A stretch of 64,000 nt of DNA from the NCBI GenBank assembly GCA_051294375.1, contig JBJCIZ010000239.1, positions 1,568,581 through 1,632,580 of the forward strand, given 5' to 3'. Each line of letters opens with the position of its first letter. Position 1 is the first letter of the stretch. Position numbers and translations under genes: made by a program. Source of the stretch: Paraspadella gotoi (taxonomy: Eukaryota; Animalia; Chaetognatha). The notes beneath the pieces are model-generated. The model saw only the letters and a list, made by a program, of their open reading frames with translations, was not told the origin of the DNA and ran no database searches. Positions 3,606-49,939 of the stretch are shown piece after piece.

Positions 3606-5132
3606 TTTTTTTGTATTGCACTCGATTTATTTACTTCTTTCGGTAAGTTCGTTGCTCTTTAAGTTTTTTTTTTCGAACTGACGTTCGGAAGGAGGCAGAA
3701 AATATTAAGCATCAATTTATCTTTAATGGTACATTTAATTTCGATTTCACGCAGACAACAATTTTTTTTTTTTTGAGGGGAGGGAAAGGAAAAAAGGAAC
3801 GAACGAACGACAGGGTTAGGGAAAGGGGAACGTACACGAAGTAGGGCTGACTTAGCTATATTATGAATTGCTATGATACCCCTTCGCACAGAAATTCTTT
3901 CCGCTCGAGTGAAGATGGACTTGACGAGTTGGGGAGCGTAAGAGGAAGATGAATGAGCAAAATGGCGGAATGACGCGAGACGTTTTGGGGATCGGGGAAA
4001 ATGACTACATCCGGGGGGGAAAACGAAATCCGGGTTTCGTGAGGCGGAAAACGACATCCGGGATTCGTGAGGCGGAAAAGGCCGACGAACGCTTTTTGCA
4101 AATTTTCGGGGACGCGAAAAAAATGTAACCGTTTAAAATGAAACCCCCCTTAAAAAGCGACTACAGTTGTCCCGACCCTGGCAATTGGCCCACCCTGGAT
4201 GCACATGTACAAAGTCCCTGATTTAGAAACGAGACTAAAACCCTATATAACAACCACAAACTAGGAAACAACATTTTTCCTTCAAAAAACTTGCTATTTT
4301 AACGTTTCTAGACGCGAAAAAAAAAACGGCGAGTAAGAATAAAGACAATTGGTAGCCTAACTGGTTTGACAGTTTGTTTGACTCGTTGTAAAACTTGTGA
4401 ATGATGGTATTAATTAACTATTGAAGAGGATATAACTGGCAACGACTAAAAAATCGCCTAGTAGTAGTAAATACCGAATGAAAACACAACAGAAAAAAAA
4501 AGAAAACGACTATAAACTATTTTCAAAACATGCCGCACAAATCGTGTAAATGTTTTTTTTTTGTTTTGTTTTGGTAAACGAAAAAAACGGGTTATTATTA
4601 TCACAGGTATGAACAACGGGAACGAATCACTACATCGAAAGGTTGTTGTTGTTGTTGTGAACTAAACAAAAGGATTACGTACTGATGAGTAGAACATACT
4701 TTTTTCAATATTTCGGTGGCATGTTTTCTCATAAATTTGTATTTTCGCCGATTAAAAATTGATATTAATTAATATTCACGAAACAGTCAAATAACGAGAC
4801 CGAGACCATAATAATTAAAACGAACGGACAAAAAATGAACAATATTTCACTGCGGTAATATTAACGTAGGCCTAAAAAAAAAAGGAAGGAAGGATTATCG
4901 GAAAAAAAAAATAATCGGAACGAAACTACACAAGCGAATCCAAAACAGACTCTTTTTCGAGGGGGACAAGAATGGCAAAGGGTGTTTAAAAAAAAAGAGA
5001 GAAATGTTCCTTAGTAAAAAAAAAGGGAAATGATCCTTAGTAAAAATTCGGTGGCATCGGAGGTTTTTATCATCGACGGGGTGGGGGGGGGAGGGGTTAG
5101 AGAGGAAGTGGTGGCGGCGGCTGCTTCTTCGA

Positions 5133-8100
5133 TCAATCTTTGTTCGACGTTTCCGTGACGCTCCAACCCAAGACTTTTCGATCGAACCCGGATGTGACCA
5201 AGTTACAGCCCACGTTGGCGCCGCCCTCTGCCCAAACGGTGGAGGTCACCATGCGCCGATGACCCTGGGGGTTGAAAACGATTTTCTAACAGTTCATTCT
5301 CTTTTCTCTCTTAGTTTTAAACTTACTTTTTAAAAACTTATTTCTTCAAGTTTTAAAGGTTTTTTTTTATAATAATTTTTTTAGCTTTTTTTTAACAATA
5401 TCTAAAAATATATCGATGAAAAGTCTGGACGCGACTAAAGAGAAAAGCATTTCCGAGAAATGCCTTCAAACCTGTCGGTTGGAGCGTCGCAATCTTCCCA
5501 GCCTCTCGCCGTTGAGGTGATAGAGTTTGACGTGACGATTGTCGCACGGGATAGCGATCCAGTTCTTCTTGGAGACGGCGAGGCGGTTGACGGCCGAGTC
5601 CGTACGGATGCTCGACAGCGGCGAACGCATGTTCTTCAAGTCCCAGACGCGTACGGTCCGGTCGTCAGAACCGGACACGACCTTGTCGGAGCCGGCAAAG
5701 ACGGCCGTGGCCACGGGTTGGGAGTGACCCTTTGGGAATCGTGAGCTTTGAATCTCGGCTTTGTGACTTCGGGGGGGGGGGGAAACGAACCTGGAAGATG
5801 TTGACCGAATGAAGACTCCGGAAATCCCAGAGTCGAAACGTGGTGTCCTTTGACGAAGTCACTATGAGCCTCTGATCCGGATGACACGTGACGTTCGTCA
5901 ATTCCAGATCGTGACCTGAGGAAGGGATTGTCGTTGTTGTTTTGCGACGATCTTGTGATTGGTGAGACTTCAAAAACGCTTACCTGTCAAAGACTGAATC
6001 AGAGATTGGCTTTCGGCGTCGTAGAGATTCGCTGTTCGGTCCCACGAGGCCGTAACCAACTGAGGAAACGAGATTTGAACAATATTTCATACGACTTGGA
6101 TTTAAACTTACACTTATTTATGCGAGTTGATGATCCCTTCGATCACCTGTGACCCTCCGTGAATCCAATCGGCGGCGGAGACGACGTCCGTGTGACCCGA
6201 AATCACCGTCACCGGATGACGCACGACCGGGAACGCGTTGTCCGAGGGGGCGTGGCTTAAGGACGTCCCGCCGGGAACGGACGTTTGAGACAATGAGACG
6301 GCGACGCTCGTCAACTGAGATGGAATAAGAAATGAAATTTAAAAACAAAAGGACATCGCGGGATTTCTTTAGTAATAATAATTAAACAAATCGATCGATA
6401 CTTGATAATTGTTGGAGGAGTTGGAAAGAACGGTGGCGGAATTGGGCGGAGTGGCGGAATGATTGGTTTGAGAAGCGCTGATTGGATCTGAGGTTGTTTT
6501 TTTTAAAAAAAAAGAAAAAATAACTTGGAAAGCAATAATTATATAAATAATAAATGTAGCAACGAATACATATTCACGTTATCAAGTTTTTTTAATCACG
6601 TCACCAAATTATTATCAAATTTAGTATGAGGCAAAAAAAAAAAAAACTTGTTGTACCCGCGTTCGCCCCGGCCGCGACCGAGTTGGCGGAGGGCGCGGCC
6701 GACGTGGGGACGGAGTCATTGAAGCTCTCCTTGTCGTAGAGGTTGTCGTCCTCCGACCCATCGAGCTCCTCCTCCCCCGACGACTGGCACTTGGCGAGCA
6801 TTTCCAGGTTGGAGGGCAGCGAGACCGCCGCCCGCCAAATGTGGGCGGTCCCGTCGCCCGAGGCCGTCAGAACCAAGTCTTAAGAGAAAAGGGGGGCGCG
6901 GCGAATCACGTTTTGTTCACATATTTCACTGGTAGTTAACGAATGGCGAATTAGACACCACGGCTCACCTTGCACTGGATGGAACCGAATTGAGTTGACG
7001 GAACCAGAGTGACCCACGTACTGAAGCAAGCACGCTTCGTTTTGCAAGCACCAAATTCTAACGGGGGATTAAAGCGGCGAAGAAAAGGTCCGGAGAATCA
7101 TTAATTTGGAAAGATGCGAATTTAATTAACGATTGACAATAAAAATGTAAGAGATGATTATTTAATATGATCTTAAATGAGATTGAATCTCATTTGCATG
7201 TTGCAGTATTGAATCTAAATGTGTCTAATTTTATTTTGGATTTTGATATTAGTTCTGTTTCATGGTTTTGAACCTGAACCTTTTGGTACCTAGTTATATG
7301 CCTATCTTATCTCAGGCAAACACATACCCCCCCTTATAAAAACCTTGCGGTGAAGTCGGCGGATGCGGTTCCGAGGACGATGGGAGTTTGTTTGGAAAGA
7401 GCGAGGTCCCAGACGCCGTCGCGATGCCCTTTGAACATTCGCATCTGTGGAAGAACAGACATTGGGAGTAAAATAGAAATGACAATAACGAAAGTTTATA
7501 TACATATAATAAAAATATTCCTAAAAACAAGTAAAATAAAACTTTTACAAAAATCGAATCGCATGATACGTAAAATAATTTAAACTACTACAAGATGTAA
7601 ATGAGATTAAAAGACTACTGACAAAAATGGAAATGACGATGACAAAAAAAAGATAATGACAAAAAAAACTGACGATCCCGCAACGCACGGTCCCGAACAA
7701 CCTGCGAACCTGATTATTTCCCCCGGCCGACATGGGGTTGGTGATTCCACCCTTGAACGAAGAGAGGATCTTAGACTGCGACGCCTTGTAAGTCGTTTTG
7801 ATTTTCTGAGAAATCTGAATTGGCCGGTTGGTTTTGCCGGAGGAGGAGGGTCCGCCGCCGGACGACGTCGGAATCGGCGCCACGATCGTCGGCAACTTGG
7901 TCGCCGACGACGGAGCGGTGGGTAGAACCGCGGAGGGCGCTGATAACGGGGGGGGGGATAATAATTCAATTCATATTAATAATATTATCAATAACGCATT
8001 TGCAACATACCCTCGGTAGAATACGGCGAGGCCGAGGTCGGTGGCGACGACGTGGTCAATGAAGGAAGACGACCTAGAAAAAATGGAGAGGGTGAAAGGG

Positions 8101-9478
8101 AACAAAATTTAGTTAAAGAAGGATAAGAGTTACATTTTTTCCGTACATTTACATTCAAAAATCTGAGAAATTTGAACAACAGAGTGATAGGGCTCATCCT
8201 ACTACTAAAAATACCAACCTGTCGTCGTCGAGTCGGCGACGCCCTGAAGTCGGTCGGACTGAGCCCCCAGTTGCTGATGAAGAGCCTCGTTTTCCGCGTG
8301 GAGAACCTCGAACTCTTGGATGATCTGAGAGAAGAGATCCGCGAGACGAGTCCGAGTCGCCGGCGGAAGAGAGTTGCCCGTTCCGCCGCCCTCAACGAAG
8401 CCTATGGGAAAATAAAGGGGAGGGAAGAATGCCCTCGTATAAATAATAAATGTGTGATGGGTTAATAGTTGGATTCGGTATTCAAAGAAGCGAACCTAAC
8501 AACGGAAAGGCGAGCGGGTTGTCGCCGCTCGATACCGAGTGCTGCTGCGGTAACTTCCGCCCGCCGTTGGAGGGGCCGTGGCGTTTTTGTCCGACGATTT
8601 GCTTCCGCCGCGGGATTTGATTTTTCCGCCGAGGAGCGATCCGACCGGGGCTGGTGGAGAGGGGGTAGAGGGGGTAGAGGAGAGAGGGGGAGAAGGGGTA
8701 GAGGAGAGAGGGGTAGAGGAGAGAGGGGTTAGGGGAGAGGGAGACGGTTTATATGAAATTGGTACAACCAAAATATAAAAATTATCCATTCATTTGACTT
8801 TGGACAGGATTTGGTTGTTTAAGACCTCCATCACTCTTACAAGATGACATAATGACATAACAGGTCCCTGTAAGCTTTCAATCAAGACTCTCACAGTATC
8901 GTTTATTCACTCCCAGAGTACCTGGCTTCCCTATCAATGAAGTGGAAAATATATATTATAAGTTCTGTTGGATGATTTTACAAAAATATTTAATTTTTAT
9001 CATTGTAATTAAACTAATTATACAATTTTTATGCCAAAGGTACGAAACCGAATCGCGTGGGTTGAATCACGTGGAAGGCGGATGGCCTCTTTTCGTAGTT
9101 TTTCTGACCCCATAACCCCATTATCATTTTACTTCTTGTTACTAAATGCGAGGGAAAAAAAAGCAAAGAAAAAATGCAAAACGCTAAAAATCACAAGTAC
9201 GTATTTACATTGGCTTCAAAAGTCAGCCATAACAAGGTCATTCATGGTTTGTTATAATCAGGTCGTTCTTTCTGACCACGACGGGTCGCAAAGTACAAAG
9301 ACTTCGTCGTTGTATTCGTCGTCGTTGTTCAAATCACTTGAGTTCCCACATGAGCCTCGTTTAATCCCTTCGCTTCATTTTTCCCCCCTCATTTTCGTCT
9401 CTTCCACTCGGAACATAATCCCTCACCTTGAGAATTGGAGCTCGGGACCGGATTGACGGCGTCCGATGCGCGAGACAT
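5133..9478 (-). CDS. WDR37: WD repeat-containing protein 37
   Basis: About 13 exons. Coiled coil [19 protein letters not shown]; WD repeats [43 protein letters not shown]; C-terminal GHRRMV...[10 protein letters not shown]. First exon (ATG 9478) is inferred. Confidence 0.9.
7146..7270. mobile_element. Repeat family B, partial copy (left TIR plus ATTTGCAT core) in a WDR37 intron
   Basis: Begins TGTAAGAGATGATTATTTAATATGATCTTAA, matching 58386 and closely matching 32269. Confidence 0.7.
8661..8741. repeat. Purine minisatellite, about (GGGGTAGAGGAGAGAG)n, at the 3' end of WDR37 intron 1
   Basis: About four imperfect copies. It reads as a pyrimidine tract on the transcribed strand next to the acceptor at 8651. 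Confidence 0.8.
8748..8952. repeat. Repeat family A, diverged single copy in WDR37 intron 1
   Basis: Aligns by eye, with small deletions, to the 31197-32169 unit and to 36968-37198. Confidence 0.9.
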
Positions 9479-9900
9479 TTTTTTCTCTTTCGGCGTCGAA
9501 CGAATTCCGACTGAAGAGTATTGATTCAGATAGGGAGGGGGGGCGTGGCCGTCGCCGAGTCACGTGTGAAACGCGAATCGACGTCCGGGACGACGATGGG
9601 TCATGGGGGAGTAAAATTAGGCGAGGTTCGAAAGAGATTAAGTCTTTTCGAGGTTTGCATTCTGACGATTCAGGAAGTTAAAAATTTGAAGAATAAAAAA
9701 AAAGTACAATTTTTTCAGTTCACACAAAAGATCTCGACTCATAACCATGGAACAGATAAGTATGTATATAGATTATAGAAACAATTGAATAAACAGCCCT
9801 AGTTTTTTTTTTGTTTTTTTTGACGACTGTTATTGTCATCGTTGCTGATGATTTCAACGGTTTGACGGTATTAACTAATTTTTTTTCTCATATCACCATA

Positions 9901-10020
9901 TTAGATGCATAGTAAAACGACTGTGGGATAGTGAAACTGCTGACGCGTTCTGAGGCATACGAGCAAGGCTGAGAAAATCTGAGCTGCCAATTTGGTCTGC
10001 AGCCACCCCATGATCTTCAT
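9901..10020 (-). CDS. Candidate 39-aa microprotein MKIMGWLQTKLAAQIFSALLVCLRTRQQFHYPTVVLLCI
   Basis: ATG in aaaATG context to TAA. The ORF coincides with a GC-richer island in AT-rich DNA, and a candidate acceptor (ttttttag) lies at ~10089. It is below the ORF-track size cutoff. Confidence 0.5.
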   Translation of the reverse strand: MKIMGWLQTKLAAQIFSALLVCLRTRQQFHYPTVVLLCI

Positions 10021-10397
10021 TTTGATAACAACAATAACAACAATATCAATAATTGTTGAAAATTGTGATCAATGCATGAGGCTTCTTTCAGATTCTAACT
10101 AAAAAAACGCCGGATTCTATTTAAACAATTTAAAACTGTCAAAACCCCATAAAAATAGGCGGGCGTATTAAAATAATGAAAAAGGAAAAAAATCTTCAAA
10201 AATGTTTTAAAATATAAAATTTTAAAGTCTTAGTCTAACCAAAACTGGATAAAGAGCTGGATTCAAGGTTTGGATGCACGAGCATTACTACATTATTAAT
10301 ATTATATAGAGTTTTGGACCAAAATCAGTATCACAGATCGATGATCGCTTTATTCTAATTTTTTCTCTCAATCACTCAATTTTATAGTTTCCGTATT

Positions 10398-12055
10398 TCA
10401 TTGTTTGAAATTTTTCAAGATTTTTTCAGCGGCTCTGAGGGTCTTTTCATCTTTGATGAAGCAGAATCGAATAATTCTTTCGCCCAAGTGACGATGTTGC
10501 TCCGAATAGAAGGCCGTCGATGGGATCGTGCCCAGCTTGTAGTTTCGGATGAGCCACTTGGCGAACCGGAAGTCAAAAGCGTCGTCCTTGTCAAGACCCT
10601 CGGCTTCGATGGCTTCGGCCACCCTGGGCAGGAGTTTGGACACGTCGGCCATCATGAAATATCTGAGAGAGAGAGAGGCGAAAAAGAAAAAGAAAGAAAA
10701 GAGAGAGAGAAGAGAGAGAGAGAGAGCAAAATCAATTTTTGGTAAACCAAACTTGGTAAAAAGAATTTGGTAAAGTTTGTCCAACAGTTTTGTGATTTTG
10801 TTCTCAACAAACAAAACTCTTGGTAGAATTGAATTGTATTTTATATTTGTGAAAAAAATCGCATTTTTTTAGAATACAAAAGACTGACTCACCCTCCCTC
10901 CGGCAGATAAGGAACAAAGCCTGCATCGGCCAGCGTCACTGCCAGGGCGTCTCGCTTCGGCTCCAATTCAGCTGGCAACGACTCAAAGTAGCAATCGGGA
11001 CTCCCAAGCCTCTCTGTCTCCTTTTCAAACCCAACTGCCACAGCCTCTTGAATCGGAGTGGGGCAAGTGTAGATGGTGTTCTGGTGCACAGTTTGCATGG
11101 CCTTCATTAGCCTTGGTGGGGCCAGGCTCCAGCCTAGCTTCCACCCAGTGCAGCTAAAGGTCTTCCCCGCGCTGCCGATGGTCACGGTCCGGTCCCACAT
11201 GTTTGGCAGGGTAGCGGCCCGGAAGTGCTGGCTGCCTTTGTAAACCAAGTGCTCGTAGACCTCATCAGATATGTAGATCGCGTCGTGTTTGATGCATAGG
11301 TCGGCGATCATTTGGATCTCTTGGCGCGAAAAGATCTTGCCCACGGGATTGTGTGGCGTGTTGACAATGATGGCACGGGTCTTGGCGTTAAACTTGGACG
11401 CCAACTCCTCGGGGTCAAGCCTCCAGTCGGCAGAAGATAAGTGTCCGTTTCCAACTGACTTTTGCGGCCGAAGTGGCACAAAGACGGGGACCCCTCCCGC
11501 GATGGAGACCATGGGATGATAGCAGTCGAAAAAGGGCTCAATGATGATAACTTCATCTCCTGGATGAACGAGCCCTGTGATAGCGGCGTGGAGACTGCCA
11601 TAGGCTCCAACGGTAATCAGCACATCCTTCAAGGGGTCTAATTGACGGCCCAGCAAAGAAGAATACAGTTTGGCGATGGCCTTGACTAGACGTGGGTGTC
11701 CATAGCTACGGGTGTACTGGTGCAAGGCAAAGTTGTCGCTGGAGACTGCCTCTATGATGGCATCCTTGACGGCAGCGGGCGGGGAGTGATGCTTCATATC
11801 GGCGAAGCCCTGACCCAAGTTGCAGGTCCCATGCTCAACATTAAGGGCCCCAAATTCAACCCATACGTTGCGGTCAAAGCCGGCATAGCGAGGGGAGAGT
11901 TCATCAGCTCGTGTTGGCATGGCGGGTGCGGGATTTAGACGGCTCGAGAGGAAGGGAATTGAAGTAAAACGAAACCCACGGGTGACGTGTCTAAGAAACG
12001 ATGGGCGAAATGTCAAGGATGAATAACATTTCAAGCAAGAGTTTAAAACAGACAT
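10398..12055 (-). CDS. KYAT3: Kynurenine aminotransferase (class I PLP aminotransferase) with mitochondrial-type presequence
   Basis: NLGQGF, QYTRSYGHPRL, NTPHNPVGK, SDEVYE, GSAGKTFSCTGWKLGW (PLP lysine) and IRFCFIK. Two exons with intron ~10663-10892. KYAT1 versus KYAT3 orthology cannot be resolved here. Confidence 0.92.
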
Positions 12056-12210
12056 CTGCGACAATGAAAAGTCGTAAAAAGGGAATTCGAAATGTATAAA
12101 AGTACATGGACCAAACGGATTGTTTTAAATAGTTTGTCATTTTCTTTTCAATTCCTCATAGGAAAATCACGGCGGGCAATAATCACAGCAAACGTTTGAT
12201 AATTCCATTT

Positions 12211-14053
12211 TTAAGGCTGCTTTTTCCTCCAAAATAATTTGATGTTGAGAAAGAACTTCTTCCAGTAGTTAGTTTCATCTTCAGACATTCCTATCTCTCT
12301 CGGCGGTTCCTCCGGTTGAGGTTCGTCCGACAACTCCTGGCCCGGCGCCGACTGTTCGTCCGACAACTCCTGGCCCGGCGCCGACTGTTCGCTCGGCACC
12401 GCCTCCTCACTCGTCGCCTCCTCCGGTAATTCCGCTATCGACGTCAACGTCTTCTCCGCAGCCTCAACTGTTTCCTCCACTTCCTTAACTTCCGCCACCG
12501 GCAAAGGCTCAGGAAAAGAAGGCCTCTCCCTCCTATTGGCTAAAACCAAATTTTGCCAGGTGTCCTTCATGGAAGGCGGCGTCCAAAAGTCTTGAAACTT
12601 GGGAGTAGCGAGATCCGATCGGTGCGTGGGATCGTCGCGATCTTCATCGTCAGCGTTCTCTTCTTTAATCTCGTCGGCGATCGCCTCGGCCGAACGGCCC
12701 CTCGTCTTCGCGTCCTCCTGCTTCTCGTTAGAAGTAACAGCGTGGACCATCTTTTCGGCTTTCCTCTCAAAGGCCTCGGTGACCATCCCTCCGTGATCGG
12801 CGACCTCCCCGATATGTTCGGAGATGACTTTGGCGGTTTCTACGAAGTCTTTGATGAGGGCGTCGGCTCCTTGTCTCCTCCGTTTCTCGGCCGCGTCGGA
12901 GCGAGTCACTTCCTCCGGAGCGGCGACGATGAGAGGTTTTCCGGCGTCGAGGTCTCGCTCGATAGGATGCCTGCTGGAGGCGGTGATGGCGCCGACGATG
13001 ATCGAAGCCACGTAGTCGTTTCTAAAATGAACACTCTCCTCCTTTGACATGATCGATTGATCGAAACGCGGCGGCTCCGGCTTTGGACCCAAGTGACGGA
13101 CGAAGGAACAACGTTGGTTTAAAACGCCGAGAAAAACTTTGGTCACGTTCATGGTTTGACGCGAAGGCTCCGGCTTGATCTTGTGCGTATAGTCGAGTTT
13201 GAAAGAAAATTGCCTCTTGTCGCGGTCGGGCTCCAATGTCGGCCTCAAAGCGCGAGATAAAGTTTCTACGACGACCAAGCTAGGACTGCCCGTCTCACCA
13301 GAGGCCAGGGGCAGAGGCACCGCGGGAAGAATCTTCTTCTTCAGCGCCAGAGTCAAGTCTCTGTCGATCGTCGGACGGCGGGAGGCGTCGAGGGCGGCGG
13401 TCAAAACGGCGGCGACGCCGGTTCGTGTCGACGTTTCCACGAGAGATTCATTCGAAGAGTTGGAGAGGGATTCTTCATTCCTTTCAGGCCTTTCTCGTCC
13501 GACGGGATCGGGATCGATCCGTGACGGCGGCGCGGAATCGCTCGCCAAATCCTTGAGCATGACGTCGGCGACGCGGTGAAGCTCTCGCTTTCGCTTCGGA
13601 TCGATGCTCGAAGTCGGGAGAGTCGTCCGCGTCGGGGTTTTCCTCGGCTTCGGCGACGAGACTTTCTTCGGCGCCTGCGACTTCTTCAACGGCGCCTTGG
13701 ACGAACTTTGATTGAGATTCGCCGACACCTTCTTCTTCATTTCTCTCAACTCGGCATCTTGGTACAACGAGATAGCCGGTCTCTTCTCCTCCTTCGCCTT
13801 TCGCTTCGACGTCAGCGGCGTATGGAACTCGACCTTCAACGCGTCCCTCAAAGACTTCACATTGTACATCTCCGCCACGGAGATGCGCTTCAGCGAAGCC
13901 TTAGGCCCGAGCGAGGGTCGATCCTCTCGGCGGATCTTCGTTTCCGGGGGATCTTTCCGGTCGACGGCCGATTCCGTCGTCGCCGGTTTCTGACGAGATT
14001 TCAAGCGAGTGGCGTCGATGTAGGATTTACGCTTCCCGGCGCCTTCTGGGGGG

Positions 14054-14087
<34 letters not shown>

Positions 14088-14178
14088 TCTTCAGTCTAAC
14101 GCTCACGCAGACGTTCGTTCGCAAGAGTCTTCCGGTCTCCACTATCGTTCTCACTCGCGTTGCCCTCAGCGACGTCAT
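12211..14178 (-). CDS. Uncharacterised 655-aa single-exon protein, possibly mitochondrial
   Basis: Long ORF with exon-like composition. Arg-rich N-terminus, poly-Gly, duplicated EQSAPGQELSD near the C-terminus. No family recognised. Confidence 0.75.
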
Positions 14179-14300
14179 TTTTTCACTCCCGCCCAGTTAA
14201 AAATCAAAAGCCTGTTCCGGCCCCTGAGACGAGAAGACGCATCCAATTGTATAACAGCCAAAAAAAAATAAATGAAAAAGAAAAAAAAGAATGCAAAGAA

Positions 14301-15401
14301 TCAAAGAGGAGGACGCTTCTCTTCTTCCTCCGGGAGTCCCAGTTCCTTTCTGATTCTCCTTTCCGCGAGTCTCTCGAGTCTCGCCTCCAGCTCTGGAACG
14401 CCGCCGCTTCCCGCGTTGATGGCCGCGTTCAACTCCAGGCGCGTCGCCTCTTCCTCGAACTCGGGCGGCACCTTGACGAACGGGGGGGGAACGGAGGATT
14501 TTTTTTAAAGTTTCATTTGCATATAGTAGCAAAGTAGCCCGTTAAGAAGGAAAATATTTCGCACCAACTTAACTTGGTTTTACAAGAATAAATATGTAAT
14601 AATAAATGAATTATAAATATAGCCTCAGCAACTAAATGCATCTTAATCATTTTCTCATGTCGTGTCCCCGTACAAAAACTCGGTGCTCACTGCTCACCGA
14701 TTCTATGAATGACTTTCCCAAATGTTTGTCGATGTCGTTCTCCTCTCTAAGGACGAAGAAATAGAGAGCGAAAATACCCATGGACGCGCTGACGATAAAG
14801 GACTGGCTTCGCGGGTAAGCGGAATCTGGGTCAGAAGGGTTGAAGGATTGTTTCATCTTCATAGTTCATATTATATAAACGTCATCGTGGCCGTAAAAAT
14901 ACTTATAATTATGATGAGGAAAAACAATTTTGTCAAAAGTTTACTATTTTCTAAGTTTTTACTTGTTGAATTTTTTTTAATAAATATAAATTTGGAATTT
15001 TGGTTTCGTAATTTTTCCGTCTTTGTTCAAATCAATCCACAAGATTAACACGCATTATATCTAATTAATATATATATTATATATTTATGCGGGTGAATTC
15101 GTTACTCACGGTTAACAAAAGTCTCGTGTGGTCGATGCTTATCCGCGCCGCTGCCCCGGAATTTCAGAGGGGCTTCGAAGTCGGGTTCCACCCTCATACT
15201 ACAAAAAGAAAGAGGTTCTTTTCGTATTCCTAAAATTAAATCGTTTGTACATATTTTGTAATATCTTTAAACTAATTACTCTTTTCCGAAGGCAGAGCCG
15301 GGGCGTGGCGCCGAAGTTCCCAATTTCCGCGCCCACCGCGAGAGCGTCTCCGTCGTCGGTCTTAATCGCGACCAACGCGCGAGATTCGGAAGGAGAGACA
15401 T
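14301..15401 (-). CDS. UQCC4: CCSMST1/C16orf91-family complex III assembly factor
   Basis: Four exons splice in frame to MSLLPNLARWSRLRP...APLKFRGSGA...ETF...IVSASMGIFALYFFVLREENDIDKHL...VPPEFEE...KRPPL*. PLKF, a TM helix and LREENDID fit the family. Confidence 0.75.
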
Positions 15402-16434
15402 AGCGTCATTCACGATTGTTTTTTGTAGTAATGTTAATAAGTTAAAAGCCGAACTTCCATCGCTTAATCAAAAATAAAATGTGAAGACAAGAAAATACGA
15501 GAAGATAAAAGAAAATATAGAATGTATGTATGTATTTCGGAGGCATATGTAACAATAGCGGTAGCCGACCAAATTCAAATTTTAATGGGAACAGCATTAA
15601 ACTAATCCATTATTGGTATTAATTATTGTGTTAAAATATTTTTTTGCAAAAATGTTCCGAACCATGAGTAATTCGCTAATTAATATTATTATATTGCTAT
15701 ATAATGTTAAAAATTTTTTTTTGATATTTTAAGTTTTTTTAATTGATTCTGATAGAGCTTAAAAAGTTAAGCAAAAAATATAATTACAACTTTTTAAAAT
15801 TTTGATGTTTTATTACTAAAAATTAGGAAAAACTGCTAAAATCATCGGATGATGATGATGATGATGATTTTTTAAGGTTTTTCTCAATTTTAACCCACTT
15901 ATCATCAAAATATTGAAAAAAGAATTATACTTTGTGTAAATAACTTTTCATAAGCTATTTGAATCTGCTTTTAAAAATAAAAAATTCAAAAAAAAAATTT
16001 TGACATTTCCTATCTATAAATAAATATTAAAAAATTAATTACTAATGCTTCTTGCCATTTTAGAAAATTTTGCTCCATTGAAAGTTTTCTCAGAAATGTG
16101 TGAAGTTTCATTTAGAAAGGTTCCCAAATCAAACTTCTGACCCACCCCATTGACGAAGTTTGGCTCTAGTAACAAACGGAAAAAATATTACGACGCAACA
16201 CTTATTTCAAGTATAGCCTATCCTCTGAGCAACCACGCAGTTCATTCGAACAGCGATCAAGTGCCATGCCACGATATGTAACGACGATTCCGGTCGCTTT
16301 TCTGATTAATGTCCTTAACCGCTATTAGTGAGACTATGTAAGTAAATTAAAAAAAGACTTTAAAAAAAGAGATTTTCGCCAAGGAAGCCCACAAACGTTT
16401 CCAGTTCTAAAAAATTCAAAACGTGTTTTTTTTT

Positions 16435-17607
16435 TCATTCCTCTTCGTCATTCTCGTTTTTCTCTTTCTCTTTCTCGATCCAATCCACGGCCCGATCGAA
16501 CACCTTCTTCGCCGCGTATTCGTTGGCTACGAACCCTTCGATCGTCGTCTCGTAGGTGTCCACGTAATACTTCCCCGTCACTCCTTTGAGGGCCTCGGCG
16601 ACGGCGCAGAAGATGACCGTTTGCGCGCCGTGCCACGGGGTCTTGGTGAAGAGCCAAAAAAAAGGGTAGAAGGATAGTTTGAATAAAGAATTGGCGAAGA
16701 GCGGAAGGTGGCGTCCATGGTTGGAATTAACGACGCCGGGATGCGCTAGAATAACATTGACGCCGTCGTCTTTCCAACGCCGCGCCGCCTCCAGAGCCGC
16801 CATGGTAAGCGCGACTTTCGATCTCGTGTAAGATCCGGAGCGGTTATCCTGTTCGCTCAGGATCTCCTCGCCCCTCACGGTGGAGAGATCGAGTTTCTCC
16901 GCGAGGGTAAAGACGCGGCAGGTGACGAATATCACGCGGGCCTCCTTGTCCGCCGAGGCGGCGGCGGCGGCGCGAAGGCGCGGCAGCAGAGAATGGGCCA
17001 GAAAGAACTGACCCAGGAAATTGATTTGAAACTGAGATTCGAATCCCTGCTCCGAATAGCTGAAGGGAGGCATGAAGGTGCCGGCGCAACAGACGAGCAC
17101 GTCAACTTTGTCGTGGGTGATGTTATCGACGAAAGCAGAGATCGAATCGAAAGACAACAAATCGATGGGCGAACAACGGACCGTCTCGCTGGCGGCATGT
17201 TTGCGGATCGACTGGGCCAGACGGGCGCCCTTTTCCGGACATAAGGAGCCGATGATGACTTTGGCGCCGCGCTGAGCCAAATCGATGGCGACCTGGCCGA
17301 ACAGGAAAAATGTAAAACGCCAACCAATGGAGGCGTGATTCAAACCCACCGAAGTTAGAAGAAATACTGTGTGTCTATTTGTCTGTCTGTCTCTGTCCGT
17401 CAGTCACTCTCACACCTGCTCCCCGATGGATCCCGAGCTGGCCCCAACGACGACGGCGATCTTTCCCTTCATCGAGCGCCGGCTCCGACACTCGGGTCCG
17501 CCGAAGTAAGATCGGATTCCGTAGACGACGCCGACGCAGAGAGCGAGGATCCAGATGCCCCAAGAGTCTAGGGGGTTGGAGAGGGGAAAGTCGCCCGGCA
17601 TTTGCAT
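16435..17607 (-). CDS. Retinol dehydrogenase 11-14-like short-chain dehydrogenase/reductase
   Basis: N-terminal TM helix, GKIAVVVGASSGSIG Rossmann motif, catalytic YTRSK, HPGVV and KTPWHGAQT. Intron ~17293-17415. Confidence 0.9.
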
Positions 17608-17758
17608 GATGATAATTCTTTTTTTGATTTTTTTTCAATTAATAACTAAAATTGAATTGAATAAAAATCCATAGTTTAAATACATTGTAACAAAACTAGT
17701 GACTAAACTTCAACAATAAAATAACTAACAACTAAACTTGAAAAATATAAAAATAACG

Positions 17759-19075
17759 TCAAACAAAATCCCCGAATATTTCGTCAATTTCGTCCAAATC
17801 GCATCGCGGTTTCGATCCTCCGCCGAGTTTTCTAGACTTCGACTTCGCAACGACGACGACGTCTTCCTCCATCATCCTCTTCCTCTTCCTTTCATCTCGA
17901 ATTTCTTCCTGTCTCTTTTTCAACTCTCCAGGTTTTGACCCCGAAGTTTTAATCGATTCCAAGTCACGTGTCGATTCGTCCTCGACACGAACGATAAACG
18001 GTTTTTTCTTTTCCTCATTTTCTTTTTTCCCCTTTCCTCTCTCGGCCGCGGCGTCGGAGTCTTTTCCCTTCTTCTTTTTCTTTGTTTTTGTCTTGTTTTT
18101 GATCGAGGGATCGACTTTTGTTTTTTCCTCCGTTTTTGTCAGTTCCTTTCTTTTCTTCTTTTCCTTGGTTTTTCTTTTTTTCTCTTTGTTTTGTTTTTCT
18201 TCGGGCGGAACGACTTCGCCGTAATCGGTTTCGTCCTCGACCCTAGTTTTCTTCGTTCTTGTTGTTGTTGTTATCGTCGTCGATTCGGAATCTCCCGTTA
18301 AGAGAGTCCTCAGATCTCCATTTGGCCCACTACTCGATTCGTCTTCTTCAGCTTCCCTTCCCACTTTTCCCCAAACCCCCGTCCGATTCACCTCCGCCAT
18401 CTTCGCCGCGAAAATTTGAAAAACGTCGTCGTCAGCGGCCTCCGGCGCGCGATCTGCCAACGCCGATATTCCGTACTCGCTCAGATCGGCGTCGCGTCCT
18501 TCGAGGACGTCCGCGTGAGGGCGCAACGCGTCGTAACACGCGGCGACGGCGAGACGAAGACCGCGGACGAGAAGGGCGACTCGAGCGACTGAGGCGGCGA
18601 AAGGAAGAAACGCCGGAATGGAATGACCGATGGAGAGAAGAAGCGTCAAGTAAGAAAAGGCGTCTCGGCAGCGCGAAACTGCTGCGTCGAAAAGCGGCAG
18701 CGACCGCGCCGTCGCCGCCAAAAAATGCTGCAGGGTTTGACGAGAAGGAAGGGAAGAAACGTTGAGCCCCGTCGCGTCGCGAGTTAAGATTTCCGCATTG
18801 CCGATCACGTTGGCCTCGGGACGGTGCAGAATTCGATCCAGGCATTGCGCCACGCGTTTCACCAGACGGAGGCCCTTCTCGTGACGCAGGGCGGCTTTGT
18901 GACGTAGAAAGAAGCGTTGGAGAATCTCTCTTTCGGTGCGGAGAGGTTTGAGGTGGGACTCGGCCAAAGGCGCCACCTTTGCGCGGCAATCGCACAATGT
19001 CAGCCAAGCGTCTCGTATTTCAGGGGAAACTGATTTCTCGTCGTAGGAAATCGAAGAGAAAGGAATAAGCGACAT
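17759..19075 (-). CDS. NEPRO: Nucleolus and neural progenitor protein-like
   Basis: Single exon. RHEKGLRLVKRVAQCLDR, LPSRQ and FAASVARV resemble the Nepro N-terminal domain; Lys-rich tail ending DEIDEIF. Confidence 0.7.
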   Translation of the reverse strand: MSLIPFSSISYDEKSVSPEIRDAWLTLCDCRAKVAPLAESHLKPLRTEREILQRFFLRHKAALRHEKGLRLVKRVAQCLDRILHRPEANVIGNAEILTRDATGLNVSSLPSRQTLQHFLAATARSLPLFDAAVSRCRDAFSYLTLLLSIGHSIPAFLPFAASVARVALLVRGLRLAVAACYDALRPHADVLEGRDADLSEYGISALADRAPEAADDDVFQIFAAKMAEVNRTGVWGKVGREAEEDESSSGPNGDLRTLLTGDSESTTITTTTRTKKTRVEDETDYGEVVPPEEKQNKEKKRKTKEKKKRKELTKTEEKTKVDPSIKNKTKTKKKKKGKDSDAAAERGKGKKENEEKKKPFIVRVEDESTRDLESIKTSGSKPGELKKRQEEIRDERKRKRMMEEDVVVVAKSKSRKLGGGSKPRCDLDEIDEIFGDFV

Positions 19076-19158
19076 TCTGGGACGAAAGAGCAACAACAAC
19101 AAAAACAACATTTAGAGCGATTTGACCGAATAAAAACTGAAAAATATTGTTTTAAACG

Positions 19159-20441
19159 TCACCGTCGATAAGTAACTTTAATCGGTTTGGAACAATAAGG
19201 ACAATCCCCGTAAACAGTATTGAAACTTTGCTGACAGTCCGGCAGGGCCTTGAGCCATTCGAAGAGACAGGCCTTGTGAAAGGCTTGGGAACAATTGGGT
19301 CGATCGCAGACCAGCGAGGGAGATTCTTCGAGATCGAAAGAGTACGAATAACAAACGCCGCAAATTAGAGTTTCGTTGGGCGGGGCGCGGCCGATGGCGC
19401 CGTCGGTGGACCGTGACGGCGCGGGCAAGTGTAGTTCGAGGACGTTGGAAAGGTTGGCAAGGATCGAGATCGAGGAGTCCCATTCCGAGGCGCGACTCTG
19501 CAGTTTTAGTCGCAAATTTTGGACGATATGATCGGGACCTAAGAGATCGAGAGTGTGAGTCAGACCAGGGAAGCGGACAAACGAAGATGAAAAGAAAAAA
19601 AAGACAATATCAGAATTAGGGTTCCCAAGAGTTCTAAATCGAATTAACGACATCAATTTCCGCCCTGACCTAAAAATCTGCACTCCGGAAGATGGCGCGG
19701 TCTTTTTGGATCGAATTCTAAAAGGAGGCTAGTGACGCCGGTTTGATCCAAGGCGACACGACGAAAACCGGCGCCGGGCGAAAACGACGCCGGTTCAAGA
19801 ACAATCGCCTCGGCGTCCAACTCGCGCATCGCCTCCCAAAATCCTTCGAATTCGGCGACGGCGTCTTTAAAAGCTCCGAAGATCTTGGAGAGATCCGCCC
19901 GCGGGGTCCATTCGAACTCGAAAGGTGCCGGAAGTTCGGCGTCGATTTCCGGCGCCTCGTGAGGATAATTCGGGGAAAACGTCGCGGTTAGTCGACGGAG
20001 TTCGCCGAAATCGGCTTCGGCGACGAGCGTTACCCTTTTCAGATCGACGGAGACGTCCTCGACGCGACGCCAACCGACTGCTTCCAGTTCGCGGAAGACG
20101 CGCGTGGCTGATGTTATCGCCGCGGCGTCGATCTCTCTGCGGGCGCGAAGGGCGGAGCGTTTGAGGCTGTGAGACGCCAGTTGCTTCAAGTCATTAAGAA
20201 AGGAAGTCAAGTCGTCGCATTGACGCAGCCGATCCTCGATCACATCCCTGTATTCGGCGCCGCCCAACGCCGCCTCCAATCGCCCGTCCAGTCGCACCTC
20301 GGCGCCGTCGAGTCGATGGGCGGATTTGAGGTCGATGGAGATTTGATAATCTTCGTCGTCGACGGTCAAGTAACCAACGAAGCGAGTTCGAGTCTCGTTC
20401 AGAGGGAAGAGGAGGGGGAAGAGGCTTCCAAAGTCTGACAT
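19159..20441 (-). CDS. FANCL: E3 ubiquitin ligase FANCL
   Basis: FPLLFPLN...FVGYLTV, FWEAMRELD...VLEP, PRHLPECRFLG and RING CGVCYS...CSQAFHKACLFEWL...YGDCPYCSKPI. One intron ~19539-19669. Confidence 0.95.
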
Positions 20442-21237
20442 CTTTTTTTCTTTCTTTCTTTCTTTCTCTCGCTCTCTCTATCTCTCTCCCTCCCTGTCGC
20501 GAGGATGAGGAGTAGACTAGCTAAAACTAAGAGATTGTGGATGACTGACTGAATATTTCGCTGGCCGATCTCCAATACTATCCGCAGGGTTGGGACGAAA
20601 ATATTTATTAACTTTTTATAGCCATTGAAAAACATAGGTTAATAAATCATTAAATCTAAATTTGTATGATTTAAAAGTTGAATCTAATAAGAACAGAGGC
20701 TCAAATTATAAGGAAATAATTTTTTCGTCATGACATACTAGTCGTAGAGGTTGTTGTTATTAAATTCGGATAGGTTTGAACTGATGATATTCATCTTGAA
20801 TTGCGTAAAAATTAGTATGAATAAAGTTTGTTATCCTGAAAACAGCTTTTGATAACGTTTTGTGAAAACCATTCAAATATTCGCTTAGAATGATATTTTA
20901 AATTGTCAACCGTTAATCGAGGATGAAATTTGGTTAAAGAAAAAAAACTTTTATTTCGTAAGTTTTATTTCAAAATTAAATTTTGTAAATTTTGAGCCTC
21001 TTATTCGTTCTTAAGCAAAATAAAAATTATAATTCAACTCATTCTATGTCTAAAAATTTACAAGCAGCCTGGAAGAAATATTTAAGAAAATAATAGAAAT
21101 ACATCATTAGATAGTTGTACAAAAACAAAAGTTTCATACCCCCGAAAACCCTGCAAAAAAAAAAGACGCCCCAGTTTTGAATCCAAATAAGAAAAAGAGA
21201 AAAAAAGTTGCGCAGTTTAAGATCGGAGAAGAGGAGT

Positions 21238-24200
21238 TCAAAGACTAGAAGGGACGGGCAGTGACGGGCCGAGACGGGGCTGTGACGGGCCGAGACGGGG
21301 CGGTGACGGGCGCGCGTCGTGACAAGGACACGCCTCCGCGACGTGGACGCGTCTAAAGAGCTCGTCGCGATGAGTGGAGAGAAGGACGGGTCTGAGAATC
21401 GTCTCGATGTCGTTGATTCGGTTGCGGAATCGAACTCGATCGCGGGCGACTTCTTCCCAAATTCCTTTGCGCTGGAAAAAGATAAAAGTTTAATACTAAA
21501 TGCATATAAAGTGGAATGAAATGAAATGAATTAAATGAGGAGATGCTTCCCTCTATTTCCAGAAGGCGAGACTTACTTTCCCATCCCAATAATTGATATG
21601 TAAATGATTGTACAAAAGAAAAGAAAATTAGGGGGGAAAAAAATCATAAAAAAAAAACAAAAATCTTAAAAACTATAGATAGTGAAACAAGTAATTTTGC
21701 CATTTTTATAATAAACGTTCTTTAATGATTGAATAATGAATTGATTTGTAAGGCTTGCTTAGCTACTATTCGCTACTGACGAAGATGAAGAACAAGTTTG
21801 AGCAAACAATGTCGGATCTGCCCACGATCATTATCGGTAATTCATTAATTAATAATTCAAGTTAATTAATAAATTAATTAATTAATTAGGCAATTAATTA
21901 ATTAATTTGATCCAAAACGTTTGTTTGAATTGATTGACTGATTAATTAATTAATGATTAATTAATTGACTAATTGATTAATTAACTGATTAATTATTTGA
22001 TTAATTAATACATCTTGCATTTACATTTAATATAAAAAGAAGAAAAAGCATAATCAATTAGTAAAACAGGTTTTTTGTTTTTTCCCATTTAAACTCATTT
22101 CTCATTCCATCAAAATATGATTTTCAGCTTAATCACACACTTTCCTACCCACATACAAAATTTCAGGTGAATCACCCCATCCACTAATGAGTAATTGGTG
22201 TTCAAATAGTAAAATAATTTTTTTGGTTTTTTTCCATTTAAACTCATTTCCACTCGGACGATTCCATCGAAACTTCATATCCAGCTCAATCACACACTTC
22301 CCTACCCACACACAAAATTTCATTCCAATCCATCCATCCAATCACGAGTAATTGGAGTTTTTTGCTAAGGTTGGACCGAAGGACAGAGACAGACAGACAG
22401 ACGGACATCATTTTTCTTGCATAATTTATCATAATTCAATGTTCTGACATAATATAAGTGAATGCCCGACAAGATTGAGGGGGTAGACCGATGGACCGAC
22501 AAAGTGAATTATAGAGTCGGGATACTGCTGACAAGCAGATCCGACTAAAAATTTCTAATAAATAACTTTTGTTCCTTACCTCTTCCTCCTCCAAGACGTG
22601 CACGCTGATCAAATCTTCTTCGGATGCAAAGTGAACGTTCGTATTTTTCTTATTTTTCTTGGGCTTTTCTTTGGGCGACTCCGTGGGCGCTTCGGCTTCG
22701 ACGTCCTGCGCGACGGGGCCCGGGGTTGATGGGGATGGGGATGGGGAGGGCGAGGGCGGCGGCGAGGAACGCGGCGACGGAGGCGGTAGAGGGACTGGCG
22801 TGCGGGACGCGCGGTGCGTCGGCAACGTCGACACCGTGGGTCGTGCGGTGGCGAAAGGATTCGCTTGAGGTTGAAAACTTTGCCAAAGATTCTGGAGATC
22901 GCAGTCGAGGCCGGAGAATGACTGAGGAAGAAGGGGGGTGGATAAATAATTAAATATTAAATAAAAAATTGAGCAAACTTTTAATTAAAGACGTTAAAAC
23001 TCAAATAATTATTATTCAACTCGAATAAAATATTGTTTTCAGTTTTTTTCTCATGCCGAAATTAAAGATAAAACCCAAAATAGAGACTTTAGAGTGTCGG
23101 CCTACTTTTTACAGGAATTAAAATATTTTTTTAGGTTCAATGTCGTAATTTTAATTTGTAATTTTTTTTTATAAACAACTATATACATGCACATTGTACA
23201 ATGTACAATTGTACATATATTCGTGACTAACCCGATTCTCGTCGCTGTCGCAGTCGGACCAGTCGACCGAATCGAAGGATTGCTCCGAACTGTGACGTTG
23301 GCGCGAGTTGACGATGTCTTTGACGCACAAAAATCCGGGGAGCGAGTCTTCGTCGTCGTCATCTTCCACTTCGTCGTCGTCCATTTCCGACGGCGCGTCT
23401 TCCGTCGCCGAGGCGTCGCTTTGACCGGAGAAGGAAATTTCAAAGTCTGGCGCGTTTTCGACGGAGAGATTGAGTGGATCCTTCGAAACGCCATCGACGT
23501 AGAGTTCATCTTTAGCCTCTTCATCTTTTGCTTCCTCTTCCTCCATATCCTCTTCCTCATCGAGCGACACGTCGTCGTCCGCGCACGATCCCTCTCTCCT
23601 CGCGGGTGAGATTCTCACCGCGTCTAAATTAATCTCGAACGAACGAACGGGCGAAGGAGAATTAAAGGATCGATTCGGCGTCGCGACGGACAACAGGACG
23701 ACGTCGTCGACGGGGTCTTCCCCCACAAGCCGGTCGTCGGGGAGAGGCGGGCAATCTTCCTCCAGGGACTGGATCGCCGAATCGTCCTTTAGGCTTTCGT
23801 CGCGGAGATAATCCGTCTCGCCGCCGTCGGCGACGACCGCGGCCGAGGGGCCTTCGAGGGAGGCCATCCTCTCGCTCTCGTAGTCGGACTCGATGGAATC
23901 CGAAGAGTCACGAGACGGAGACGGTTCCGTTTCCGAGAATATAGTCTCTTCGGTTTTGAGAGAGGAAATTTTGGTTTCGGCGACCGTTGAGGGCTTTCCG
24001 AAACAGTTGGTTAAGAAGTTGGTATCGAAGTTGGATCCAGGAGGCTCTTCGGTCGATTGAAAAAATAATTTGTAAGAATTTTGGAAAGGATCCGAGCAGC
24101 TAATCCGCGAGTTACTGGAGGGAAGCTGCACGACCTCAGTGACTCGAAAAGCAGCGAAGGAAGAGAAGACCGAGGGCGGGCTGGCGTCGTCGTCGTCTTT

Positions 24201-24419
24201 TCCTTCGATGTCCGGCGACGATAAACGACCCAAACCAGAGTTTTCTTCTCCGAGAAATTGGGGTAGCACCTTGGAAGTCGTCGTGTTTTGAGGACCGAAA
24301 GAGTTTCCGAAGCGAAGGCCGTTTTTGGTCGGGCACTGTCGGGCGGCGAGAGTGGTCGAGGAACTGGCGGACAAATCGGGAGACCCGAGGCCGAGAAACT
24401 TTTCGAAAAGATGATCCAT
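21238..24419 (-). CDS. PPP1R15: eIF2alpha phosphatase regulatory subunit (GADD34/CReP family)
   Basis: Three exons (24419-23232, 22891-22580, 21471-21238) join in phase 0: acidic region, NLWQSFQPQANPF, NVHF...VHVL, then RKGIWEEVARDRVRFRNRINDIETILRPVL...HR, the conserved PPP1R15 core. Confidence 0.9.
21845..22430. mobile_element. Helitron/HINE (DINE-1-like) remnant in PPP1R15 intron 2
   Basis: TTAAT/ATTAA-rich block at 21845-22010, ~155-bp tandem duplication at 22075-22350 containing CAAAATTTCA, then a (GACA)n GACGGAC microsatellite. This layout is typical of such elements. Confidence 0.5.
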
Positions 24420-24514
24420 GGTTAAGGTAGGATTCGTACCCGGGAAGTTTTTAAAGAGTCGTAAGAAAGTTGGGGGGGGAAGGGGAAGAGTTATAAGGGC
24501 GAATAATTTTCGGT

Positions 24515-24670
24515 TTACGCGCCCATATTTTTAGCCGGGAAAGACGGGATTTTTTGCCAGGGAGGAAATTCGCCTTTCGCGTAGTCCTTGTCTTTTCTAT
24601 CGTTTTGGTTCCACGATTCGGGATGGAGTTCGAACAAACGAGAGATTTTGAACATCGGGTCAGCGAGCAT
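24515..24670 (-). promoter_or_regulatory. 51-aa upstream ORF in the PPP1R15 leader
   Basis: accATG start; MLADPMFKISRLFELHPESWNQNDRKDKDYAKGEFPPWQKIPSFPAKNMGA*. It lies between a ttttcag acceptor (24711-24712) and the main ATG at 24419. Confidence 0.7.
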
Positions 24671-24929
24671 GGTAAGTTATGTCGTAATTGAAACGCGAAG
24701 AATTGAAATTCTGAAAACGCATTTGAGAAAAAAAAAATAATAAGAACTGGAAAAAAGATAAAACGTCATCGAAAAATAAAGATATAAAGATATTGCATCT
24801 TTGGAAGAATCAAAGAATCAAACGACGGCATAAAATCGATTTAGCACCGAGAAAAATAAGCAATGTTTTTTTTGTTTTTTTTGGCAACGCATTGTACAAT
24901 GTACAGTGGTAATTGTAGAGATGTAAAGG

Positions 24930-29022
<4,093 letters not shown>

Positions 29023-35800: not shown

Positions 35801-35851
35801 GACGAGGTCCTCCTTTAATTCAGTAGCGGCGCCGTTGAGAGAGATATTCAT
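29881..35851 (-). CDS. STAT: Divergent STAT transcription factor
   Basis: Coiled coil LDRWKRKQ; DNA-binding domain CLVIENQP...VRVRLLL; SQPFVITTHTNQEPESWAPIFWDRAF; SH2 FGFISR...GTFLIRFSGSEFG; phosphotyrosine motif PGYV; long Ser-rich tail. About six exons. Confidence 0.9.
31197..32169. repeat. Repeat family A, three near-identical tandem units of ~322 bp in a STAT intron
   Basis: Units begin ATGAAATTGGTACAACC at 31201, 31522 and 31846. Confidence 0.95.
32269..32401. mobile_element. Repeat family B, partial copy in a STAT intron
   Basis: Collinear with 7146-7270 over ~125 bp. Confidence 0.7.
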
Positions 35852-38779: not shown

Positions 38780-39268
38780 GTTCCGGTCGAGTCGGACATG
38801 TTAAGAGGAAAGAAACTCTGGAAAAAATGGCAGATATGTACTTAAATCCAAGATTCTCTACGTTTAGAGTCAGCAACAACATAATAATACTTGCTGTGAT
38901 TTTGTACAAAAAAATTCAAGGGTACATATAATACGAGAACTTGTTTAAATAAGCAAAAATTTCATTGATAGGAGGAGAAAAAACTGGACGTATTAAAGAA
39001 TAAACTAAAAAGGTAAAAATATTTAACTAATAAAAAATGTAGGACGTAAGGACACTTGCCGCATGCTATATCCCTTAGCACATTTAGCACTTTTAATGTA
39101 TTAGGATGACGATTAAAGATGGCCCAGGACGCCAAAATAAAAGTTATAAAAAAGCTAAAACATTCTCTAATAGGTTTTTTTTTTTCAACTTGAGCGAGAG
39201 AGGTAAGGCACGATAGTTCACCACGAGTGAAAGACGGGGGGAAAAAGCGGGCGAGCATAAAGACTAAT

Positions 39269-49489: not shown

Positions 49490-49939
49490 GTTGAGAATTA
49501 GCGGCGCTGAAAATATTAACTGTAAAGCCAAGTCTGTACCCTTTTTATCCCTAGAATTGTTTAAAAAAAAAAAACGAAATATAAGCCGAATATAATCACG
49601 GATATCGTGTCGTAATAATTTATTACGTGTAAACTATAACGAAGTTTAAAAGATATATATAGATTTACTTCGATTCTGATTCTTTCCAACGAATAACGTT
49701 TCATAACGGTGTTCCAAAGGTCGTTATTATTTCGATTATTTTCCGCGGTAATGAACGATTTTTACAAATATTTAATGACAGAATTTACTGACTAGTTATC
49801 GATTGCAACTGGGCTTCATAAACGAACCTATAACGAGACAAGAAGGAACACAAATCGCTAGGTAAATACTAAAATAGTAAATATTAGCTAAAGATTTCTT
49901 TTTTGAAAGGGTAAAAGGGTGTAGGAGAGTTAAATCATA

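Follow-up and report, generated by a model that had tools for sequence, protein, structure and literature searches.

How does an animal express a tight row of unrelated housekeeping genes that nearly all face the same way, some of them only 83 to 155 nucleotides (nt) apart? This question is raised by a 64-kilobase (kb) stretch of the genome of the chaetognath Paraspadella gotoi (contig JBJCIZ010000239.1, positions 1,568,581 to 1,632,580), hereafter the window, in which the minus strand carries 21 of the 22 genes. The original prediction, made from the letters of the DNA, held that unpaired AGs behind U-rich tracts, just before start codons, probably accept a spliced leader (SL). Here we show that SL trans-splicing acts in this gene cluster, with two acceptors receiving leaders, and we consider it probable (about 0.85) that its unrelated housekeeping genes are expressed from what are likely polycistronic precursors cut by SL trans-splicing, probably also at AGs in four short gaps. 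Both SL trans-splicing and operons have been described in chaetognaths, in Spadella cephaloptera (PMC2481426) and in P. gotoi itself (PMC12460157), and published literature on the mechanism goes back to 2008. What the window adds is one further operon region of a chaetognath, in which two leader junctions are mapped and one leader may be an unlisted variant.

Our RNA evidence consists of the contigs of one public run (X1, library type not on record), aligned to positions 9000-25700. Such contigs indicate presence and not absence, and leader branches can drop out of them. Six contigs fit the stretch 9330-15520 and leave three loose ends in total. One of these continues into the following WD40 exon, outside the stretch; the other two are leaders, each attached 5' of a minus-strand gene:

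15463..15464, minus strand: AG at which the UQCC4-like gene is trans-spliced, receiving chaetognath SL1; the exon starts at 15462
14301..15401, minus strand: UQCC4-like gene with three introns; Pfam CCSMST1; three CT..AC joints in RNA
9662..9663, minus strand: trans-splice acceptor AG of the WD40 gene, receiving a second leader that ends in TTGTTTAAA; the exon starts at 9661
5133..9661, minus strand: WD40 gene, trans-spliced at 9662; Pfam WD40 matches

From its script-made translation, we take the WD40 gene to be WDR37-like. At the UQCC4-like gene, a 21-nt loose end at 15468 and six further letters, aligned with one difference, together reproduce the 27 nt at the 3' end of SL1 as published in Table 3 of PMC2481426, the one mismatch falling on the G of the AG that the genome has at 15463. 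This exact SL1 match by itself makes a chaetognath source very likely. The second leader (ATTTTCTAGAGCTTGTTTAAA as read on the RNA strand) is likewise a loose end of 21 nt, at 9661, and joins directly behind the AG at 9663-9662. It has a 3' end of 9-10 nt in common with published SL2, SL3 and SL4, and overall only 12-13 of its 21 letters agree with theirs. Both leaders are foreign to the local genome (best match within the window, 16 of 21 letters), and each is represented by a single contig of this single run. The letters of the second leader had no match in a full-text literature search, nor in a scan of viral contigs, which carries little information; it may be one of three P. gotoi leaders that are shown only in a figure of PMC12460157.

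The claim that leaders are added in this cluster thus stands, for two non-genomic leaders sit exactly at the AGs 15463 and 9662, although none of the ten AGs named beforehand was seen with one; five of those ten lie in the stretches covered by RNA, where the contigs are collinear with the genome. The used acceptors also show that the AG nearest the ATG is an unreliable guide to the site, because they lie 61 nt (15463) and 183 nt (9662) from the main start codon, one of them is an AAG with a weak score of 1.5, and the leader of the WD40 gene passes over an AG at 9511, 32 nt from the ATG. Upstream of both are U-rich tracts, free of AG for 139 nt at 15463 and for 71 nt at 9662. We also observe that an ATG stands 1-2 nt behind the AG at each acceptor (15460 and 9660, minus strand) and opens a short open reading frame (ORF) that ends before the main start, so that the mature mRNAs would begin with a leader followed by an upstream ORF.

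RNA also runs on from gene to gene. The features involved are:

24930..29022, minus strand: leishmanolysin-like gene (LMLN); Pfam Peptidase_M8; its 3' part opens the 8711-nt contig described below (piece 23232-25499)
21238..24419, minus strand: PPP1R15-like gene; Pfam PP1c_bdg; intron 21472-22579 skipped in RNA; candidate acceptor at 24711
19159..20441, minus strand: FANCL; Pfam FANCL_d1-3 and FANCL_C; one intron, 19539-19669, with an RNA joint
17759..19075, minus strand: NEPRO, a single exon; Pfam NEPRO_N
16435..17607, minus strand: short-chain dehydrogenase (RDH-like) with one intron; Pfam adh_short; the RNA contig runs on to 16143
15465..16142, no strand assigned: repeat-bearing stretch from the end of the RDH contig to the UQCC4 acceptor; multi-copy repeat
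12211..14178, minus strand: orphan ORF of 655 amino acids, a single exon; covered by RNA contigs
9696..12055, minus strand: KYAT gene, stop codon at 10398, then about 700 nt of 3' sequence; Pfam Aminotran_1_2

One spliced contig of 8711 nt starts in the final exon of the leishmanolysin-like gene, passes through PPP1R15, FANCL and NEPRO into RDH and on to 16143, and agrees with the genome throughout (0 differences), spanning stop-to-ATG gaps of 510, 796, 83 and 151 nt. With the three-gene stretch from UQCC4 to KYAT, spliced contigs cross six gene junctions in all. The contig through the orphan and KYAT stops at 9696, which leaves 33 nt to the WD40 acceptor, a contig end not being equivalent to an mRNA end or a mapped poly(A) site. 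Stop-to-ATG distances can mislead: measured from codon to codon, 919 nt lie between KYAT and the WD40 gene, and yet the KYAT contig comes within 33 nt of the next acceptor. Between the two stretches, 15465-16142 shows a depth of 1900-3300 that comes from repeat contigs, with no cover above 15468 at 98% likeness; no listed contig crosses it, which says nothing either way on continuity.

That X1 represents RNA we judge from five CT..AC joints in its contigs, which excise introns exactly. Of the region's words the run contains a share of 0.84, and in intron bins, at 98% likeness, the depth is no more than their exon letters supply (for example 18.3 = 16/207 x 237.2). Gaps as long as these uncovered introns lie inside contigs with 0 differences. 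Genomic DNA in X1 was considered as a source of the collinear contigs and rejected, since introns of like length have no cover, a comparison to be read with the knowledge that low-depth intron paths can be pruned.

The four short gaps were examined with splice weight matrices for which 62 donors and 69 acceptors were selected manually, as the script gene finder over-called introns (112); false or unclear introns and two candidates for GC donors were kept out. The window has GT-AG introns, and the curated set (n=60, median 121 nt) includes 8 with RNA support. The gaps are:

19076..19158, minus strand: FANCL-NEPRO gap, 83 nt; candidate AG at 19077 (alternative at 19137); crossed by the 8711-nt contig
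17608..17758, minus strand: NEPRO-RDH gap, 151 nt; candidate AG at 17646, with a weak score of 0.8; crossed by the 8711-nt contig
14179..14300, minus strand: UQCC4-orphan gap, 122 nt; candidate AG at 14224; crossed by the SL1-bearing, spliced 838-nt contig
12056..12210, minus strand: orphan-KYAT gap, 155 nt; candidate AG at 12056, adjoining the ATG; crossed by a spliced 2429-nt contig

The stop-to-ATG lengths of 83, 151, 122 and 155 nt and the quoted gap endings all proved correct, and all ten of the AGs proposed as acceptors are present (19077, 17646, 14224, 12056, 24711, 38818 at the Cys/His-rich gene, 46392 at EIF2B4, 47402 at RWDD3, 49507 and 57595). The description of these AGs as unpaired also held in the four gaps, where the top donor-like scores are 3.0 (FANCL-NEPRO), 1.8 (NEPRO-RDH), 3.8 (UQCC4-orphan) and 2.7 (orphan-KYAT), below the 10th percentile of the 62 curated donors (5.3) and above their minimum (1.5). 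Neither AATAAA nor ATTAAA occurs in any of the four. Looser was the wording that the AGs stand just before the ATG, as that of PPP1R15 (24711) lies 291 nt from the main ATG and that of DHPS (57595) 87 nt.

The acceptor signature exceeds chance modestly. When the top acceptor score in the 100 nt before the ATG is averaged over 20 gene starts, it comes to 5.61, against 3.42 +/- 0.81 in dinucleotide shuffles, none of which (0/300) reached the observed value; at 200 nt 3/300 shuffles did so, and at 60 nt 18/300. Pyrimidine count alone before the ATG is not enriched (182/300 shuffles at 60 nt, 67/300 at 100 nt). Nine combinations of window and statistic were tried in these tests. Since the summed enrichment is modest and the p values of single sites are weak, we regard the signature as real in sum and weak at any one site. 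A T-over-A skew is positive in 20/20 gaps, weak in long ones (0.04-0.05 for FANCL, UQCC4 and WDR37), and did not separate gaps crossed by contigs from those left uncrossed. A rule framed after the fact (a YAG no more than 50 nt from the ATG, preceded by 14 pyrimidines in 20 and by 29 nt free of AG) picks out all four short gaps and 7 of the 20 gaps overall.

The weak scores at single sites would suit an explanation in which these AGs are cis acceptors of introns in 5' untranslated regions (UTRs), or chance AGs in U-rich 3' UTRs. At some outlying sites this may hold, to judge from DHPS, where a strong donor-like GT (score 10.6) stands at 57725, upstream of the AG at 57595, and from HACD, whose AG at 49507 scores -0.8. 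In the four short gaps, on the other hand, a good donor is absent and the RNA contigs contain no cis joint; and the two leaders are absent from the window, one of them being a published SL, which refutes the explanation for 15463 and 9662. For the cluster as a whole its probability is close to nil.

Shared precursors resolved by leader addition at the short gaps face several points that weigh against them. No leader was found at 14224 or 12056, where the table of loose ends is complete, nor at 19077, 17646 or 24711 among the 6 of 459 loose ends listed, and the contigs are collinear with the genome at all five. Leaders appeared only where the genomic path upstream had no cover. The post-hoc acceptor rule fits neither leader-bearing site (15463 or 9662), and the per-site p values are weak (NEPRO 0.063, RDH 0.653, orphan 0.010 and KYAT 0.073), with 8 AGs in the NEPRO-RDH gap. 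Finally, a contig across genes is not the same as one molecule, and the evidence is that of contigs only, from a single run.

The first two of these points would be explained if the short gaps were not trans-spliced at all, and mature polycistronic mRNAs were translated by re-initiation or internal entry, with leaders only at the starts of units (15463 and 9662). Contigs at a depth of 125-297 do span the short gaps with no loose end displayed. Contigs reveal presence and not absence, however, and where a path runs through, de Bruijn assemblers trim away short branches beside it; leaders recovered only at uncovered paths are the pattern to be expected from such tip clipping. Mature mRNAs with five ORFs are not known in animals that possess SL machinery, and the enrichment of acceptor-like AGs within 100 nt of start codons also speaks against such a scheme. 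We regard mature polycistronic mRNAs as highly improbable here.

The point about molecules and contigs leaves room for genes that are trans-spliced but separately transcribed, with a promoter inside the upstream gene, an outron overlapping the upstream 3' end and transcripts fused by the assembler, in a hybrid or non-operon arrangement. Overlapping transcripts also yield collinear contigs, and of the genes of P. gotoi about half are trans-spliced (10,197 of 21,072) and only 18% lie in operons (PMC12460157). Against this, the arrangement requires promoters within coding exons at six consecutive junctions; the upstream 3' ends lack AATAAA in the four short gaps, and operons have been demonstrated in chaetognaths (PMC2481426, PMC12460157). 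We therefore think separate transcription very unlikely.

Our preferred reading remains that of shared transcripts, likely divided by leader splicing, to which the leader-bearing cluster and the collinear cross-gene contigs together point, and which draws further support from the absence of a good donor and of AATAAA or ATTAAA in the four gaps. We propose that transcription of the cluster would yield polycistronic precursors, that these would be cut into single mRNAs where acceptors without a donor undergo SL trans-splicing, and that upstream 3' ends may form near the next acceptor without a canonical signal, as in Ciona and Spadella. There are likely at least two units, LMLN-PPP1R15-FANCL-NEPRO-RDH and UQCC4-orphan-KYAT-WDR37, or perhaps a single unit of nine genes interrupted by the repeat. 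By the operon rule of PMC12460157, two or more adjacent genes lie less than 250 bp apart and at least one member carries a leader. All four short gaps fall within that distance (83, 151, 122 and 155 nt), and UQCC4-orphan-KYAT(-WDR37) has leader-bearing members; for FANCL-NEPRO-RDH no leader was seen in contigs among the 6 of 459 loose ends listed.

The nearest comparison is the chaetognath system already described. SL1 is identical over 27 nt, the second leader has the same type of 3' end, there are several leaders per species and short gaps between unrelated housekeeping genes, and upstream RNA ends near the next acceptor; in Spadella, the poly(A) site and the acceptor are 3 bases apart (PMC2481426) and the SL genes sit within the 5S cluster (PMC2566580). 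Two differences are that the middle part of our second leader is absent from Table 3 of PMC2481426, and that the same-strand run here comprises 21 genes, whereas the longest operon in PMC12460157, by its 250-bp rule, has nine. The cluster goes unnamed in the text examined, and neither six gene names nor the two leader endings occur in three PDFs of PMC12460157; its operon spreadsheet, which lay outside that search, may list the cluster. A term search of a preprint on Spadella (10.1101/2025.01.31.635879) found no mention of operons or trans-splicing.

Further afield, operons of Ciona and Oikopleura and the SL1-type operons of C. elegans share the lack of AAUAAA before downstream acceptors, upstream RNA that reaches close to the acceptor and no evident dedicated downstream leader (PMC1488885); in Ciona, a signal of the AATAAA/ATTAAA type is missing in 16 of 18 operons. 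They differ in that their leader sequences are unrelated to ours, chaetognath leaders resembling those of no other phylum (PMC2481426). In Ciona-type operons without intercistronic DNA the upstream poly(A) site abuts the acceptor; here the KYAT contig, whose end need not be an mRNA end, stops 33 nt before the AG. SL2-type operons of C. elegans (PMC1488885, PMC7986045) likewise have a U-rich spacing of about 100 nt, and their downstream genes, too, follow an acceptor that lacks a donor. Unlike in those operons, where AAUAAA directs the 3' end about 100 nt before the acceptor, the signal is absent from 4/4 gaps here. As for a dedicated downstream leader, PMC12460157 reports no operon-specific leader for chaetognaths, and in the window two genes carry two different leaders, seen in one contig each.

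The strand uniformity of the window bears on a longer scale of organisation. Its 22 genes were derived from listed ORFs, Pfam scans and a gene model made by script; the minus-strand set comprises 19 genes modelled from start to stop and partial genes at both window ends. For 21 consecutive co-oriented genes p is about 1e-6 if strands are independent, an assumption that operons and tandem order break, in a window chosen by its reader. In a 158-kb bacterial artificial chromosome of Spadella, 14/14 named cellular genes with an orientation lie on one strand, the four minus rows being transposon proteins (Table S5 of PMC2481426, which lists only genes with SwissProt matches), and its authors comment on the tight clustering of genes with the same orientation. 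Together, these two one-strand runs hint at units beyond the published nine-gene maximum. The words 'strand', 'orientation' and 'directional' are absent from the text of PMC12460157, and no paper on directional clusters in chaetognaths appeared among the 15 of 211 matches listed.

Long co-oriented runs of unrelated genes resolved by leaders, here 21/22 genes over 64 kb, recall the directional gene clusters of kinetoplastids. In kinetoplastids there are almost no cis introns, every gene is trans-spliced and initiation occurs at cluster borders only. The genes of the window, in contrast, are intron-rich (60 curated introns), and about half of chaetognath genes are reported as not trans-spliced (PMC12460157). 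We consider it unlikely that chaetognath genomes are built of trypanosome-like directional clusters, with the 64-kb run of 21 genes (and the 158-kb Spadella run) forming one or a few very long polycistronic units; it seems similarly doubtful that 3' ends would be set throughout such units by trans-splicing at the next acceptor, and that published operon sizes would be far too small. Against a single giant unit are the RDH-UQCC4 gap, which listed contigs leave uncrossed, several gaps of more than 800 nt and a promoter-like stretch upstream of AIMP2. This last (3990-4120, minus strand) holds direct repeats with the E2F-like TTTTCCGCC in a GC-richer stretch, a possible promoter and thus a possible unit border. 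If strand uniformity is genome-wide and transcription continuous, an animal phylum would have converged on a kinetoplastid-like organisation while keeping its introns, and the question of operon growth would become directly testable with existing data.

Gene names proposed from the letters were largely matched by Pfam, which returned FANCL, NEPRO_N, adh_short, CCSMST1 (UQCC4), Aminotran_1_2, PP1c_bdg, IF-2B, RWD and PTPLA, with DS only below the cut-off (first exon); the Pfam scan gave no family for the orphan ORF or for the scanned exon of a Cys/His-rich multi-exon gene at 36150-38799 (minus strand). A long gene at 29881-35851 (minus strand) has a weak SH2 match, below the cut-off, and a layout that resembles that of STAT proteins, which it may represent. 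The sole plus-strand gene (27485-27922), within an intron of the leishmanolysin-like gene, encodes a repeat protein of 145 amino acids rich in Arg, Lys, Ser and Cys; its first 131 residues gave no Pfam match, and by composition we take it to be protamine-like.

In a metagenome scan no close relative was found, the best full-length match being 59%. Environmental sequence sets often contain relatives of KYAT (71-73% identity, in clusters of 3-21 members), which perhaps come from other members of the phylum; the best named protein match reached 63%. Two introns are likely GC-AG by eye, the first of FAM91A1 (about 54645, minus strand) and the first of the leishmanolysin-like gene (about 28610, minus strand). 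A dispersed repeat of about 320 nt occurs as three tandem copies in one intron (31194-32141) and as partial copies in two others (8795-8952 and 36962-37240). The leader region of the PPP1R15-like gene contains an upstream ORF of 51 codons (24515-24670, minus strand); in other animals, upstream ORFs control the translation of GADD34/PPP1R15A.

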